This document shows positions 1 through 12,014 of a DNA stretch of 64,000 nt, piece after piece. Each line of letters begins with the position of its first letter. The first letter of the stretch is position 1. Source of the DNA: an uncultured Ignavibacteria bacterium. Lineage in GTDB: Bacteria > Zixibacteria > MSB-5A5 > CAIYYT01. Made by a program: the position numbers and the translations under genes. The notes under the pieces were generated by a model. The model had not been told where the DNA came from. It searched no databases and worked only from the letters and a program-made list of their open reading frames with translations. Location: NCBI GenBank assembly GCA_964370935.1, contig CAYJKI010000010.1:4420-68419 (forward strand), written 5' to 3'.

Positions 1-549
1 ACGTGCGTTCCCGTCCATGCTATTCTTTCGGCAACGGCGGCAAGCGAGCCGATATTCGATGCTGCGTTTATTGATCGTTTGCCACAGCGCTCAAAGCCGG
101 TAATGTGCATCGATCTGGCGATTCCGCGCGATTTCAGCAGTGTGTTTGATGATAATTCGAAAGTGAAACTGGTTGATATTCCGTACTTGCGTTCAAAATG
201 TAACGTCAATCTCCGCCAAAAGTTTGTTGAGACGAGCAAGGCGAATGAAATTGTGCGGGATGCTGTGAACCAGTATTTTTCCGACCGCATGGAAGTATCA
301 CTGAAGCCAATTTTTCACGATAGTTACCAGGAATCGATGCGGATGGCGAAGAGTGCACTTGACGACTTGTTCGCCAAGAAGGTAACGGGCCTCTCGGAGG
401 AAGAAAAGGAAGCGGTGTATCGGCTGGTAACCAAACTTGTCGCCAACTCGGCATTTCAACCTGTAAAGGTTCTTTCAAATAAACTCGTCGAAATGGGTTC
501 TGACCTCGAGATCGCAGAAATCAAGGATATTCGCAAAGAAGCAGTATGA
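1..549 (+). CDS. hemA: Glutamyl-tRNA reductase, C-terminal part (5' truncated by window edge)
   Basis: Frame open from base 1 (TCVPVHAILSATAASEPIF...), CIDLAIPRD motif; stop overlaps hemC start; heads the hem operon. Confidence 0.85.
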   Translation, partial: TCVPVHAILSATAASEPIFDAAFIDRLPQRSKPVMCIDLAIPRDFSSVFDDNSKVKLVDIPYLRSKCNVNLRQKFVETSKANEIVRDAVNQYFSDRMEVSLKPIFHDSYQESMRMAKSALDDLFAKKVTGLSEEEKEAVYRLVTKLVANSAFQPVKVLSNKLVEMGSDLEIAEIKDIRKEAV

Positions 550-6860: not shown

Positions 6861-7814
6861 ATGAGAAACAAGATCGCCGTCATCCTGCTCGCGATGGGCG
6901 GTCCCGATTCAACCGCCGATATTCCCGAATTTCTCTACAACATCTTCTCTGATCGCGCGATCATTCGGCTGCCGGGCGGAGCCGTTTTGCAGAAACCATT
7001 TGCCCGGCTGATCTCGCGGCTGCGCTCAAAGAACGTTGCCGCACATTATAGCCACATAGGCGGTGGATCACCGCTGCTCAAGTGGACACAGTCGCAGGCG
7101 CGACTGATTGGCGAAAATCTGCAGAAAGAGTTCGACGAGGTAACGTGCTATATCGGAATGCGTTATTTTCGACCGAGTATTGAATCGGCGATCAAGGCTG
7201 CGGTCGATGATGGTTACGAGCAACTTTGTGTCTTGCCGCTCTATCCGCAGTTCGCGACGGCGACGACGGGGTCATCGTTTGCCGTGGCACGCGAAGCATT
7301 GAAGGCATACCCACAAATTGAAGCGACCTTTATCCGAGACTTCCACGATTATCCGGAATACACACGCCTGCTGGGGGCATACATCGAGCGCAATATACAA
7401 CCCGGCGAAACGCTATTGTTTTCGGCACATTCGCTGCCGCAGAGATTTGTCGATGAAGGCGATCCGTATGTTGAGCAGGTCAAGAAGACTGCAGCGATGT
7501 CGGCTGGGAAGCGGGATTATCATCTCGCGTTTCAGAGCCGTACCGGGCCGGTGAAGTGGGTCGGGCCGGATACGGTAGTCGAAGTCAAGCGGCTGTTGGA
7601 GGACCCCATGTGCAGACTCTTCATAGTTCCAATCAGTTTTGTTTGCGATCATATCGAGACGCTCTATGAACTGGATATTCAATTGAAGGAATTGGTCGGC
7701 GCAGAAAAGGGAGCGCGGATTCGAAGGATGCCGATGTTCAACGACGATCTGAGTTTTGGCCGACTGCTGGCAGAACTCGTGTGTACGAAAGTGGGCGAGT
7801 ATGCCGGAAAATGA
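6861..7814 (+). CDS. hemH: Ferrochelatase
   Basis: LLAMGGP, IGGGSPL, LYPQF, FSAHSLP, FQSRTGPVKW, FVCDHIETLYELD. Confidence 0.96.
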   Translation: MRNKIAVILLAMGGPDSTADIPEFLYNIFSDRAIIRLPGGAVLQKPFARLISRLRSKNVAAHYSHIGGGSPLLKWTQSQARLIGENLQKEFDEVTCYIGMRYFRPSIESAIKAAVDDGYEQLCVLPLYPQFATATTGSSFAVAREALKAYPQIEATFIRDFHDYPEYTRLLGAYIERNIQPGETLLFSAHSLPQRFVDEGDPYVEQVKKTAAMSAGKRDYHLAFQSRTGPVKWVGPDTVVEVKRLLEDPMCRLFIVPISFVCDHIETLYELDIQLKELVGAEKGARIRRMPMFNDDLSFGRLLAELVCTKVGEYAGK

Positions 7815-9174
7815 TGTCATAATCATCGGCGGCGGAATATCCGGATTGGCGGCATTGCATTATCTTCGCCAGGACAAGCCAAATCTTAAAGTAAAATTGT
7901 TCGAAGCGGAACCGCGATTAGGCGGAACCATTGGGACCGACCGGATTGACGGTTACAGCTTTGACTCGGGGCCAAATGGGTTTCTTGATCGCGAGCCGTT
8001 AACGCTTCAGCTTTGCGATGAATTGGGGCTCAAGGAACAACTTGAACGCGCCAACGAGAGCGTCAACAACCGTTACATTCTCAAGGGGGGACGACTGCGC
8101 TCGGTGCCGATGTCGCCGCCGAAGTTTCTGATGGCGGATATCATTAGCTGGCCTGGGAAGATGCGAATTGCTCTGGAGCCCTTTTCCAAGAAACGTCCGG
8201 ATGGAATTGATGAATCGATTTACGACTTTGCCTGTCGGCGAATTGGCCGTGAAGCTGCAGATTATCTGGTACAGCCGATGGTCTCCGGTGTCTACGGCGG
8301 TGTCGCGCAGAAGATGTCACTGCAGTCGTGCTTTCCCATCATGCGTGAGATGGAGGACGAGCACGGCTCGCTATTCAAGGCAATGATCGCCAAAGCCAAA
8401 GCGGCAAAGGCAAAGGGCAAGAAGAGCGGTGGACCATCAGGTCCGGGCGGATGGTTAACATCATTCAAGGGCGGGCTGGACAGAATTGTCGTGCGGTTTC
8501 AGGAAACGTATGCACCGTTCATTTCAACAGGAAAGAGCGCGGAGTCGATCATGCGATCAGATGGCGGGTTCGTCGTTAAGTTTAAGGACGGTTTCAGTGA
8601 GACGACACGAAATGTCATCATGGCGACGCCTTCATACGAAACTGCGAAGATGACGGCGAAATTGTCGCCAGAGTTATCGCAGGCACTGGGATCGATTCCG
8701 TATGCGCCAATTGCGGTCGTGTGTGCAGGGTATCACGCCAAACAAGTCAAAGATCCGGTGAATGGATTTGGATTTCTAGTGCCGAAGAAGGAGAATCGGA
8801 AGATTCTCGGATCAATCTGGACCTCGTCGATATTTGCGGATCGCACCCCGCAGGGTATGGTTCAGTTTCGAACAATGGTTGGCGGCGACGGATTTCATGA
8901 GTCAGTTGACTTGACCGACGAGGAGCTGTTGACAGCAGTCAAGCAGGATTTAGGCGAGATTATGCACATCACGGGTGAGCCGGAAATGGTCAAGATGTAT
9001 CGCTGGAAATATGGCATCCCGCAGTATCGGGTCGGACATCGGAAGTTGCTTGATACCATCGAGCGGGAACTAACTTCGATTGGCGGGACTCACATTGCCG
9101 GAAACGCTTATTATGGCATCGGTCTCAATGATTGTGTGAAGCAGTCGCACAAAGTGGCGGGGCTGATTTCATAG
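7801..9174 (+). CDS. hemY: Protoporphyrinogen/coproporphyrinogen oxidase, HemY family (start placed at ATG 7801)
   Basis: IIGGGISGLAA FAD motif, GPNGFL, GFGFLVP, LGSIWTS, IPQY, GIGLNDCV. Confidence 0.93.
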   Translation: MPENDVIIIGGGISGLAALHYLRQDKPNLKVKLFEAEPRLGGTIGTDRIDGYSFDSGPNGFLDREPLTLQLCDELGLKEQLERANESVNNRYILKGGRLRSVPMSPPKFLMADIISWPGKMRIALEPFSKKRPDGIDESIYDFACRRIGREAADYLVQPMVSGVYGGVAQKMSLQSCFPIMREMEDEHGSLFKAMIAKAKAAKAKGKKSGGPSGPGGWLTSFKGGLDRIVVRFQETYAPFISTGKSAESIMRSDGGFVVKFKDGFSETTRNVIMATPSYETAKMTAKLSPELSQALGSIPYAPIAVVCAGYHAKQVKDPVNGFGFLVPKKENRKILGSIWTSSIFADRTPQGMVQFRTMVGGDGFHESVDLTDEELLTAVKQDLGEIMHITGEPEMVKMYRWKYGIPQYRVGHRKLLDTIERELTSIGGTHIAGNAYYGIGLNDCVKQSHKVAGLIS

Positions 9175-9197: not shown

Positions 9198-9980
9198 TTA
9201 CTCCAATCCGAACTTACGCTCCTCAAGGAAATTCTTCATATGTATTCGCAAAGTCGCGGGATTGTTGGTTGCTGCCCGGCGGGCGGAGTGTTCGGTCCAG
9301 GAGTAGTCGGCTGGGACGTCGCGGCCATCGGGAGTCGTGAGCTTGCGGTGAGCACCTTCGTAGAGCCCGGTCGCGCGAACGGTATTATCGTATTCCTGCA
9401 AGAGTCGAGCCAATGTCGCATCGTTGTATTCCTCCAAATGCACCACCGCCTGTTGAGGTAGACGGGGTTTGATCATCGGCTGCTGATCTGGATAGCCGAG
9501 GCAGATTCCCATTAAGGGGAAGACTCTTTGAGGCAGCTTAAGCAACTCGCAGACCTTGTCGGGATTGTTACGAATGCCGCCGATCATACAGATTCCCAGA
9601 CCCGCCGCTTCTGCCGCGACGGCGATGTTCTGGGCGACAAGTGCGGTATCGACGATTGACACGATGGAGATTTCGATATGGCGATCCTTGAATTGGTAGC
9701 AGCGTAACTTGCAGATTTCGTTTAGACGACGAAGATCCGGACACATCACGAGGAAAACCGGGCATTGTTCGATTTGAGCCTGATTGCCGCAATATTGTGC
9801 AAGCAGTTGTTTTTTTGCTGCGTCGCGGACGACGATAATCGAATACGGCTGAAGGTTTGACGAAGTTGGAGCTTGGCGAGCACACCCGAGAATTTTAACA
9901 AGCAACTCTTCTTCGACCGGGCGATTGGTGTAGCGACGGATTGACTTGTGTGATTGCAGCAACTCGAATATTTCCTGCAT
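9198..9980 (-). CDS. NADPH-dependent nitroreductase/flavin oxidoreductase, NfsA/NfrA1 family
   Basis: SHKSIRRY, APTSSNLQPYSII, GLGICMIGGIRN, KPRLP. Confidence 0.9.
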   Translation of the reverse strand: MQEIFELLQSHKSIRRYTNRPVEEELLVKILGCARQAPTSSNLQPYSIIVVRDAAKKQLLAQYCGNQAQIEQCPVFLVMCPDLRRLNEICKLRCYQFKDRHIEISIVSIVDTALVAQNIAVAAEAAGLGICMIGGIRNNPDKVCELLKLPQRVFPLMGICLGYPDQQPMIKPRLPQQAVVHLEEYNDATLARLLQEYDNTVRATGLYEGAHRKLTTPDGRDVPADYSWTEHSARRAATNNPATLRIHMKNFLEERKFGLE

Positions 9981-10044
9981 TGGATTCCTATGATCGAGTT
10001 AAAAGGTGTTCCCAAATCTCACTTACTGTGGCGGCAGAAAGCGG

Positions 10045-10423
10045 TCAGACAGTCAGGTAGACGATAATAGTAAAAGCCAGCGCGACAGCAAACGACTTAG
10101 TAAAGATTCCCAAGGCTTTCTGACGTAATTCAGAAGCTTGATTTTCGTCGGTGATTTGTTCTTCGATCTTGTCCTGTTTGCGCCGACCACGCACCGCCAA
10201 GGCGACTCACGTCTTCTCTCGTGCTTGTAGTAGTCCAAGCACAGCGATCCATGCCGGAACCAATAATAAGAGGTACCAACTGCGCTCAACGGCTGCAGCC
10301 CGCAGCCCGCAGAGCGACGAATATCAATACCGTCAATGCGAATGCAGTGACCGAAATGCGCTCGCGTTTGCGGCATTCAGCTACGCCGATATTAGTTACC
10401 GTTTGCCCGGCATTTCTGCTCAC
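10045..10423 (-). pseudogene. Small membrane protein (~123 aa after correction) with in-frame TGA (candidate selenocysteine) and a frameshifting 7-bp tandem duplication
   Basis: Manual translation from GTG 10423: SRNAGQTVTNIGVAECRKRERISVTAFALTVLIFVALR / [remove one CTGCGGG] / AAAVERSWYLLLLVPAWIAVLGLLQAREKT-TGA(10209-10207)-VALAVRGRRKQDKIEEQITDENQASELRQKALGIFTKSFAVALAFTIIVYLTV-stop; 379-7=372 nt restores the frame. Confidence 0.7.
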
Positions 10424-10491
10424 AATATAAGATACTCAACAGACATCGTAACAAGATTGCAGCGTTGATCGTTGCACGCAACCAAAACTAA

Positions 10492-10519
10492 AAAGGCGGC
10501 CCGGGATCGGGTCGCCTTT
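10492..10519 (-). terminator. Intrinsic terminator downstream of gdhA
   Basis: Minus strand AAAGGCGACCCG-ATCC-CGGGCCGCCTTT followed by TTAGTTTT. Confidence 0.75.
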
Positions 10520-10559
10520 GCAAGTAAGAACATGGATACCCTGTCGGTACCCGAAGAGA

Positions 10560-11918
10560 CTAAACTACACCTTGGTCGAGCATAGCATCGGCGACTTTTA
10601 CAAATCCGCCGATATTTGCACCATTGACGTAGTTAATATAATTGCCTTCGCGGCCGTAAGTCACGCAAGTCGTGTGGATTGCTTTCATGATGCCATGCAA
10701 TCTCTTGTCGACCTCTTCGCGCGACCAGGAAAGTCGGAGACTGTTCTGCGACATTTCCAATCCAGAGGTGGCAACACCACCGGCGTTTGCAGCCTTTCCG
10801 GGACCATAGAGAATCTTGTTGTCGATGAAGTGCTTAATGGCCTCGGGCGAGGATGGCATATTCGCGCCTTCGCTGACAACGTAGATACCATTGTTGATGA
10901 GGTTTTGGGCGTCTTTGCCGCTGATCTCATTCTGTGTTGCGGATGGGAAGGCACACTGGGCTTTGTGATTCCAGAGCGGATTGTGATCGCTTCCCGACTG
11001 GAGCGGCGAATAGACGGCGGTCTTGTATTTGTCCGCATACTCTTTGATGCGGCCGCGGCGATTGTTCTTGAGATCAAGCACGAATGCGAGTTTGTCGCGG
11101 TCAATTCCGGCCTCGTCATAGATGTAACCGGAAGAATCCGAGAGGGTCATCGGTTTGGCGCCGAGGTCAAGAAGTTTCTCGATCGTGTATTGCGCGACAT
11201 TGCCCGAGCCTGACACGAGACAACTCTTCCCTTGCAGCGATTCATTCCGAGTACCCAACATTTCGGCGGCGAAGTATACCGCTCCGTAACCAGTGGCTTC
11301 GGGCCGGATGAGACTGCCGCCCCAACCCAATCCCTTGCCGGTGAGGACACCGGTGAACTCATTACGGAGTTTCTTGTATTGGCCGAACAAGAAACCGATT
11401 TCGCGACCGCCCACGCCGATATCGCCTGCAGGTACGTCCGTGTCGGGCCCGATATGACGGCAGAGTTCGCTCATGAAGGCTTGGCAGAAGCGCATTACTT
11501 CCATATCCGATTTGCCTTTGGGGTCAAAGTCGGATCCGCCCTTGCCACCACCCATCGGCAGAGTAGTCAGACTGTTCTTAAATACTTGTTCGAAGGCGAG
11601 AAATTTCAGAATGCCAAGATTAACGGTAGGATGGAAACGCAGGCCGCCTTTATATGGCCCGATGGCAGAATTCATTTCAATCCGAAAGCCGCGGTTGACT
11701 CTGATTTCGCCGGAATCATCGACCCAGGGGACGCGGAACATCAGGACGCGCTCCGGTTCGACGACGCGCTCAAGGATTTTCGCTTCGCGATAAACCGGGT
11801 GCCGATCGAGGAACGGCATTAACGACTCCACGACTTCTTGTACCGCTTGGTGGAACTCTTTCTCGCCAGAATTCTTGGCTTTGACCTGCTCCATAAAGGC
11901 AGCAACGTTGCTCGACAT
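10560..11918 (-). CDS. gdhA: NADP-specific-type glutamate dehydrogenase (start placed at ATG 11918)
   Basis: EKEFHQAVQEV, GPYKGGLRFHP, FLAFEQVFKNSLT, PMGGGKGGSDFDPKGKS, GSGNVAQY; AAGGAGA RBS before MSSNVAAF. Confidence 0.95.
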   Translation of the reverse strand: MSSNVAAFMEQVKAKNSGEKEFHQAVQEVVESLMPFLDRHPVYREAKILERVVEPERVLMFRVPWVDDSGEIRVNRGFRIEMNSAIGPYKGGLRFHPTVNLGILKFLAFEQVFKNSLTTLPMGGGKGGSDFDPKGKSDMEVMRFCQAFMSELCRHIGPDTDVPAGDIGVGGREIGFLFGQYKKLRNEFTGVLTGKGLGWGGSLIRPEATGYGAVYFAAEMLGTRNESLQGKSCLVSGSGNVAQYTIEKLLDLGAKPMTLSDSSGYIYDEAGIDRDKLAFVLDLKNNRRGRIKEYADKYKTAVYSPLQSGSDHNPLWNHKAQCAFPSATQNEISGKDAQNLINNGIYVVSEGANMPSSPEAIKHFIDNKILYGPGKAANAGGVATSGLEMSQNSLRLSWSREEVDKRLHGIMKAIHTTCVTYGREGNYINYVNGANIGGFVKVADAMLDQGVV

Positions 11919-12014
11919 CGAGGTCTCCTTCGTTGGAATGTTTTTGTCGCGACACAAAAATAGAACAAACACTCTATATTTGTGTCGAAAATCTACCGAG
12001 GTGTCGATCAAAGC

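Follow-up and report, generated by a model that had tools for sequence, protein, structure and literature searches.

The window (i.e., the whole 64,000-nt stretch of DNA analysed here) carries on its minus strand, between a glutamate dehydrogenase gene and a nitroreductase-family gene, the pieces of a small membrane protein gene (Table 1). An earlier note on this DNA had described here a coherent three-transmembrane protein that crosses an in-frame TGA, and its local elements were all found, since the strand reads ...GLLQAREKT-TGA-VALAVRGRR... with 53 sense codons (10206-10048) before the next stop. The coherent frame, however, does not exist: the GTG frame differs from that of the TGA and ends early, the QAREKT-TGA frame has stops further upstream (10335-10333 and 10326-10324), and the halves join only on removal of one copy of a duplicated heptamer, a frameshift that the note had overlooked. 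The N-terminal fragment MSRNAGQTVTNIGVAECRKRERISVTAFALTVLIFVALRAAGCSR contains the N-I-G-x-x-E-C-R-K-R-E motif and the first transmembrane helix (TM1), corresponds to positions 3-49 of the family HMM, and lies out of frame with the remaining gene downstream of the duplication. The middle fragment (A)AAVERSWYLLLLVPAWIAVLGLLQAREKT comprises a periplasmic loop, TM2 and the conserved G-L-L-Q-A-R-E-K-T motif, and the C-terminal half VALAVRGRRKQDKIEEQITDENQASELRQKALGIFTKSFAVALAFTIIVYLTV comprises a short helix, a beta-hairpin, an amphipathic helix and TM3, as modelled for the closest intact relative. A terminator-like hairpin (10552-10534) follows the glutamate dehydrogenase gene, and a sigma-70 consensus scan gave no promoter-like site directly upstream of 10423, where only this terminator-like site was seen. 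The nitroreductase gene faces a convergent plus-strand gene (7756-9174) for a 472-aa protein of the flavin amine-oxidase family (Amino_oxidase, NAD_binding_8), a pairing that recurs at one locus of the same genus (L025).

Table 1. Features at the locus (window positions).
Feature	Position	Strand	Details
Nitroreductase-family protein, 260 aa	9198..9980	-	Downstream neighbour, same strand
C-terminal half, 53 codons, VALAVRGRRKQDKIEEQITDENQASELRQKALGIFTKSFAVALAFTIIVYLTV	10045..10206	-	Ends at stop TGA 10047-10045; frame translation and relative's model
SECIS-like apical hairpin UGCGU-GGUCG-GCGCA	10179..10193	-	+17..+31 from the U of UGA
In-frame TGA at the invariant Cys column	10207..10209	-	Putative Sec codon of intact relatives; family alignment
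Middle fragment, second frame, (A)AAVERSWYLLLLVPAWIAVLGLLQAREKT	10210..10298	-	HMM match
7-nt tandem duplication, CTGCGGG x2	10299..10312	-	Copies 10312-10306 and 10305-10299; Tandem Repeats Finder and alignment
N-terminal fragment, 45 codons, MSRNAGQTVTNIGVAECRKRERISVTAFALTVLIFVALRAAGCSR	10286..10423	-	GTG start at 10423, stop TGA 10288-10286
Glutamate dehydrogenase (gdhA)	10560..12011	-	Upstream neighbour, same strand

The duplication was recognized both as a period-7 repeat at 10295-10312 (Tandem Repeats Finder) and by DNA alignment with three relatives, in which the window holds exactly 7 extra bases, i.e., the second CTGCGGG copy; without one copy, the two frames fuse into ...FVALRAAAVERSWYLLLL.... 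Logan contigs of two sequencing runs (X1 and X3, depth 6.3 and 10.1) match the window without a difference over 9990-10600 and include the duplication; both runs come from a single study and may themselves have supplied the assembly, and four runs of that study carry every sampled word of the stretch. Since contigs of separate runs reproduce the repeat, the duplication appears as a feature of the population and not of one assembler, even if contigs hide minor variants, so that an intact allele may coexist. A contig from an unrelated activated-sludge run (X7) holds a close relative with 9 mismatches over 219 nt that is without exactly 7 nt at 10299, and a contig of a third study shows 173 letters in place of 180 window letters. 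In the sampled-word search of sequencing runs, the stretch was absent from RNA runs. A profile search of the own genome found no second gene copy, no damage other than the duplication was seen in the window's copy, and its pN/pS against the closest relative (0.211/0.384), compared with that between two intact relatives (0.17/0.364), gave no clear relaxation of constraint. The inactivation would thus be recent, given that the remainder of the gene is undamaged and that its pN/pS resembles that of intact pairs. Note that at 10151-10185 (minus strand) the N-x-D-x-G-E-E of relatives is replaced by KQDKIEE in the window's copy, with isoleucine in place of the glycine of the predicted beta-hairpin; this could be either an early indication that constraint has relaxed or mere lineage variation.

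It might be argued that the gene is still functional here, the duplication being an assembly or consensus artefact, or a reversible slipped-strand switch with a coexisting intact allele, since a two-copy tandem repeat can arise and revert by slippage, the downstream part bears no further disabling change, pN/pS against the closest relative is similar to that of the intact pair, and minor alleles are invisible in contigs. However, the contigs of the two runs reproduce the duplication exactly, two heptamer copies make a poor phase-variation tract, and none of the 23 other genomes with a TGA form shows such a repeat state, which leaves a functional gene unlikely and recent inactivation as the preferred reading.

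The relatives provide the context in which the window's copy can be understood. By DNA search, the region is present in 8 of 40 related genomes, and in 8/8 the same TGA lies in one unbroken frame, in which N-I-G-x-x-E-C-R-K-R-E, two hydrophobic helices and G-L-L-Q-A-R-E-K-T precede the TGA, while x-A-L-A-x-R-G-R-R-N-x-D-x-G-E-E, a third hydrophobic helix and a stop follow it. A profile built from these eight loci detected an intact form with one TGA in 12 of the 21 genomes in the taxonomic family, and a scan of the phylum gave matches in 32/285 genomes, i.e., 23 with the intact one-TGA form, 7 with a stop-free gene (Cys forms), one broken by three TGAs (G036) and the source genome, whose match is split in two pieces. 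Intact relatives display one frame of ~122 aa through the TGA (HMM positions 1-123, E-values down to 5e-57), a conservation that the window itself fails owing to its 7-nt duplication. A metagenome scan with a degenerate pattern for G-L-L-Q-A-R-E-K-T-TGA returned 101 matches, of which 80 loci were fetched; 75 of these (72 distinct proteins) match the family HMM beyond position 100, and among the other five, three run off the fetched DNA, one (L193) stops five codons past the TGA and one (L158) is unrelated. Sequence is therefore conserved on either side of the TGA in 23 phylum genomes and 75 metagenome loci, the kind of conservation that the earlier note had proposed to look for, the recurrence of the TGA in one unbroken frame in 8/8 loci and 23 genomes goes beyond chance, and both halves evolve under purifying selection (pN/pS of 0.43 upstream and 0.59 downstream).

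Homologues with an ordinary codon at the TGA column are far from rare. A word-indexed protein search returned 480 proteins at E <= 0.01, nearly all of ~120 aa, and an exhaustive profile search returned 1519 at E <= 1e-3 and 400 at E <= 1e-10. Among the 269 sequences returned by the profile search and aligned to the profile, the TGA column holds Cys in 261, another residue in five (G twice, W, D and S) and the protein end in three, so that Cys is present in 261 of the 266 with a residue there; Trp at this column and an end at K-T thus account for one and three of the 269, and the downstream sequence is conserved. The note had suggested that proteins with N-I-G-x-x-E-x-R-x-R and Q-A-R-x-x-x-C-V motifs carry Cys at this position, and both motifs proved to be genuine family features. 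The three proteins that end (P0124, P0209 and P0223, at ...EKT or ...TKT, and unnamed in their records) are truncated gene calls of TGA forms, and the best full-length public protein in the word-indexed search shares no more than 54% identity with a TGA form, which indicates that public gene calls hold TGA forms only as stubs. In species genomes, Cys forms were found at 53 loci, mostly in Pyrinomonadaceae and other Acidobacteriota, with a few in Gemmatimonadota, Myxococcota, Omnitrophota and Eiseniibacteriota and one in the cultured Melghirimyces thermohalophilus DSM 45514, in a scan that was blind to TGA forms because its pattern included the Cys. In the window's own genus, one genome (G003, loci L025 and L026) has a Cys form (TGC) matched in two pieces around an N stretch; both pieces repeat the same ~17 residues (LLFIPSWIAVLGLLQVK), which suggests an artefact of scaffolding more than a biological feature.

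If the TGA were a true stop everywhere, the product would be a two-helix protein of ~69 residues, and the downstream part a decaying remnant or a separate peptide. The three public gene calls that end there, the metagenome locus that stops shortly afterwards and one genome without detectable SelA and SelB (G274, see below) would fit such a view, yet the 53 downstream codons remain open, in frame and homologous to the Cys forms across the genomes and metagenome loci counted above, their pN/pS is that of a constrained sequence, the alignment of TGA forms contains no conserved start codon or ribosome-binding signal past the TGA, and the TGA coincides exactly with the invariant Cys, all of which make termination very improbable compared with decoding of the UGA as selenocysteine (Sec) in intact relatives.

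The machinery for Sec was sought in the source genome, as suggested by the earlier note, and selA, selB, selD and tRNA-Sec are all present: tRNA-Sec adjoins selA, selB is adjacent (313 bits, above cut-off) and selD scores 411 bits. SelA is so common in the phylum (264/285 genomes) that finding it has no discriminating value there. One genome with a TGA form (G274, locus L040; 100% complete by markers, 110 contigs) gave no SelA or SelB over cut-off, while G278, whose TGA form (L039) is near-identical, carries selA and selB side by side; either the selA/selB locus of G274 is unbinned, or the trait was lost very recently. Judging from the family tally, a further genome with a TGA form (G284, 88% complete) probably lacks SelA. 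Outside the window, the selD of the own genome (C10:126631-127560) sits in an open frame of 739 codons, far beyond a plain SelD, which suggests a fusion with another domain. Decoding of the TGA as one of the usual amino acids, through an altered genetic code or near-cognate read-through, is scarcely credible, since nothing specific speaks for it beyond one homologue with Trp and two with Gly at the column, whereas TGA terminates this gene and its relatives, the SelA, SelB and SelD frames are free of internal stops, Cys dominates the column and the Sec machinery is present.

The hairpin that the note had placed 13 nt past the TGA was found there with one base pair more than drawn (spacing 18, -5.3 kcal/mol), and the lower stem it had proposed between GTC and GAC also appears in the ViennaRNA MFE fold, where GUC (+4..6) pairs with a downstream GAC. 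Rfam gave no match for 9900-10600, even with E-values up to 10 allowed. The published bacterial SECIS (bSECIS) model (PMC13188914) calls for 3-9 nt in the loop, a G within its first two positions, no fewer than 4 bp in the stem, a UGA-to-loop spacing of 16-37 nt and an MFE <= -7.5 kcal/mol. All 23 TGA forms considered, window included, fit this model, yet 52 of 60 Cys forms fit it as well, and these criteria are thus non-discriminating between the two. Indeed, arms and loop are formed by the codons GCG-CGC-GGN-NNN-CGC of A-A-R-G-x-R (or TGC where position 79 is Cys), the loop GG being the codon of the near-invariant Gly77, so that the conserved motif itself builds the hairpin in most Cys forms. 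Folding energy of the 24-nt core (-7.9 kcal/mol for Sec versus -6.5 for Cys forms, at a GC content of 0.57 versus 0.66) was rejected as a discriminator, TGA forms being no better once GC is considered.

Covariation gave a clearer picture. Because the 22 genome-derived TGA forms alone (4-5 bp) showed no covariation above shuffles by RNAalifold and pair counts, the metagenome scan was added, and the helix +16..+20 with +26..+30 was compared with 500 shuffles over 86 distinct TGA forms. With a shuffle control that ignores sequence relatedness, 89.8% of cells were paired (81.7 +/- 0.9 shuffled), 30 cells were changed on both sides (8.7 +/- 2.3 shuffled) and the covariation score reached 0.288 (0.152 +/- 0.013 shuffled), none of these values being attained in any of the 500 shuffles. 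The innermost pair is GC in 38, GU in 11, UA in 11, CG in 7 and UG in 3 TGA forms, and several changes swap amino acids yet keep pairing (e.g., CGC/ACG to CTC/CAG). In contrast, the 60 Cys forms, a set that differs in make-up from the TGA forms, displayed no significant covariation (0.226 vs 0.214; 141/500 shuffles), although 82.7% of their cells were paired (4/500 shuffles), and one position was unpaired in 18/60 of them versus 0/86 TGA forms. Note that a 3' arm slid by -2 is still 65% paired because the arms are GC repeats. The description of the hairpin as SECIS-like is thus consistent both with the published bacterial model and with covariation across the 86 TGA forms.

Altogether, we consider, with a probability of roughly 0.75, that the locus is a recently inactivated gene of a ~122-residue three-transmembrane family in whose relatives the UGA encodes Sec. 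Intact relatives would be translated in one frame through the UGA at the sole invariant cysteine of the family, in the motif G-L-L-Q-A-R-E-K-T-[C/U] at the predicted cytoplasmic end of TM2, and SelB would decode this UGA as selenocysteine, guided by the hairpin +16..+30, whose arms and GG loop would at the same time be the A-A-R-G-x-R codons. In the source genome, slippage between TM1 and TM2 has duplicated 7 nt and thereby shifts the frame, which leaves at most a 45-residue N-terminal stub, so that the selenoprotein is probably not made there. The Sec incorporation proposed by the earlier note would consequently hold for the UGA of intact relatives, where comparative sequence evidence makes it most likely, while in the window the gene is split and insertion is unlikely. 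The window locus would probably be a recent pseudogene of a well-supported and apparently uncatalogued selenoprotein family.

The distribution of Sec and Cys forms suggests repeated exchange between them. In a maximum-likelihood tree of 47 rows (21 Sec, 26 Cys; the broken L042 and the N-gap-split L025 were left out), 7 changes of the Sec/Cys label are required, and the well-supported branches force at least five, the deep branches being weak because the protein is short. As Cys forms owe a SECIS-like hairpin to the A-A-R-G-x-R motif from the outset, one TGY-to-TGA substitution can suffice to convert the gene, which has apparently occurred repeatedly; the hairpin in Cys forms fits the at least five switches of the tree.

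Regarding the protein itself, an AlphaFold2 model (133 sequences; query, the closest intact relative with the TGA read as C) gave three helices with a pLDDT of 94 and a pTM of 0.83, its elements being helices 14-40, 45-67 and 71-75, a beta-hairpin (78-80/85-87) and a helix 91-122. From hydropathy and charge (positive-inside rule), we infer that the N-terminus and residues 66-104 are cytoplasmic, which would bring residue 70 to the inner membrane face. No Pfam or NCBIfam family was found over cut-off for 4 TGA forms and 30 members, a PDB sequence search gave nothing below E 3.6, Foldseek against PDB gave nothing at E <= 1e-3, and a search of the ESM Atlas with a Cys form led only to unnamed 'hypothetical protein' clusters. 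Fold matches were confined to generic three-helix bundles; the best VIA-align match, MrpG (7d3u_G, Z 7.3), was rejected as within noise for helical bundles, and homodimer prediction of a Cys form scored 0.00. A second, 'resolving' Cys as a family feature was likewise rejected, as 39/75 metagenome TGA forms are without any other Cys; Cys at position 17 occurs in 15/25 TGA forms, all in the window's own taxonomic family, and is absent from the metagenome TGA forms, and Cys at position 79 occurs in 121/268 Cys forms. Our best guess, at somewhat less than even odds, is that a single selenol or thiol acts on the cytoplasmic side of the membrane, together with an external partner, in redox chemistry or in the handling of sulfur, selenium or metals.

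The gene neighbourhood differs among lineages, and no universal gene partner emerged among those scanned. The position upstream of the nitroreductase gene, mentioned by the earlier note, holds for the window and its genus, in which a nitroreductase gene lies 3' on the same strand in 8 loci, but the link fails in other lineages, so that the nitroreductase was rejected as a general partner. In another family of the phylum (L030 and L033-L036), a Toast_rack_N (DUF2154) protein of ~270-300 aa is encoded ~110 nt upstream on the same strand in 5/5 loci, for Sec and Cys forms alike. In Pyrinomonadaceae, 21 of 25 scanned upstream neighbours are short Biotin_lipoyl/HlyD-like proteins, with a TolC-like outer-membrane efflux protein ahead of them in 7/7 scanned cases; for the Cys forms of this group (L044-L085), the order is thus TolC-like (690-770 aa), Biotin_lipoyl/HlyD-like (212-280 aa) and then the family gene, with no recognisable transporter gene inside it. 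In Acidobacteriota, these adjacent TolC-like and HlyD-like envelope proteins might be the partner of the lone Sec.

The family is, judged on main texts, apparently uncatalogued, although the supplements of large screens could list it unnamed. Table 1 of PMC13188914 (2026) gives 119 prokaryotic selenoprotein families or subfamilies, each with a domain identifier, and none of them is a small three-helix membrane protein; the models of these 119 families gave no Pfam or NCBIfam match, the few defined by cd or PTHR identifiers (thioredoxin-like, BtuF, CopZ and Fe-S proteins) being compared by name only. Deep-Sep (PMC12013277) describes nine new families in a main text from which the word 'membrane' is absent, the literature covered also includes the Sargasso paper (PMC1088965) and the preprint 10.1101/2022.07.06.499078, look-ups of earlier findings yielded nothing on this family, and our search found no paper naming both 'DUF2892' and 'selenocysteine'. 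In a broader reading, to which we give slightly less than even odds, this is a widespread single-Sec membrane family of soil and sediment bacteria with a SECIS coded by its own motif, a one-base Cys/Sec switch and, for a lone Sec at the inner membrane face that is without a resolving Cys in half of the members, an external partner; it would have been missed by catalogues because gene callers cut at the UGA, and would show at least five switches on the tree because one base toggles Cys and Sec.

If Sec insertion is true, the family would add to the ~119 known prokaryotic selenoprotein families and would be among the few integral-membrane selenoproteins, without a thioredoxin-like motif, thereby pointing to an unstudied membrane selenium chemistry. 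It would also offer a clean natural case of a SECIS pre-existing in Cys homologues as a by-product of the coding sequence, which bears on the ease of selenoprotein gain and loss in bacteria, and hundreds of public family records truncated at the UGA could be re-annotated. For the source genome itself, the message is modest, i.e., a fresh pseudogene.

Compared with known systems, the hairpin resembles the SECIS of E. coli fdhF as a small hairpin near the UGA with GGU in the apical loop of the window's element. Numbered from the first base of the UGA, the window's loop bases G22, G23 and U24 correspond to positions that we take to be those contacted by SelB in fdhF. Unlike the fdhF element, the stem has only 4-5 bp and is without a bulged U, 56/75 metagenome TGA forms have GGG instead of GGU, and the loop register varies by lineage. 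At the protein level, DUF2892 (PF11127, the YgaP-like transmembrane domain) is similar in that an N-x-G-x-x-[DE]-R-x-x-R motif at the N-terminus comes before two transmembrane helices, which have an S-W-W/Y turn, and TM2 is closely followed by a conserved Cys, but the present family adds a beta-hairpin, an amphipathic helix and a third transmembrane helix. By hhalign, the similarity to PF11127 has a probability of 28% (E 6e-4) over 47 columns that cover the motif and TM1-TM2 and end before the Cys, PF11127 gave no match against family members at E up to 10 or 1, and true DUF2892 genes were found at other loci of the same genomes, so that we regard the resemblance as a lead, not as membership. 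Stand-alone DUF2892 proteins of two subtypes (...GWCPAY... and ...FTGFCPAE...) occur in 20/21 related genomes, all with Cys and without TGA (own genome, C1:108322-108489; relatives, L109-L128).

A close parallel is provided by computationally predicted bacterial selenoprotein families derived from Cys homologues, among them membrane families such as the YeeE/YedE-type, MerT-like and SaoP families (PMC13188914), which likewise show a UGA on a conserved Cys, conserved flanks, a hairpin right after the UGA, several Sec-using lineages and Cys forms that outnumber Sec forms. These features are the criteria used by the field (PMC13188914 and PMC12013277). In contrast to the catalogued Cys-derived families, the present one has no UxxC or CxxU redox motif, and it differs from catalogued families in general as a small three-helix membrane protein with its putative Sec at the cytoplasmic membrane face.
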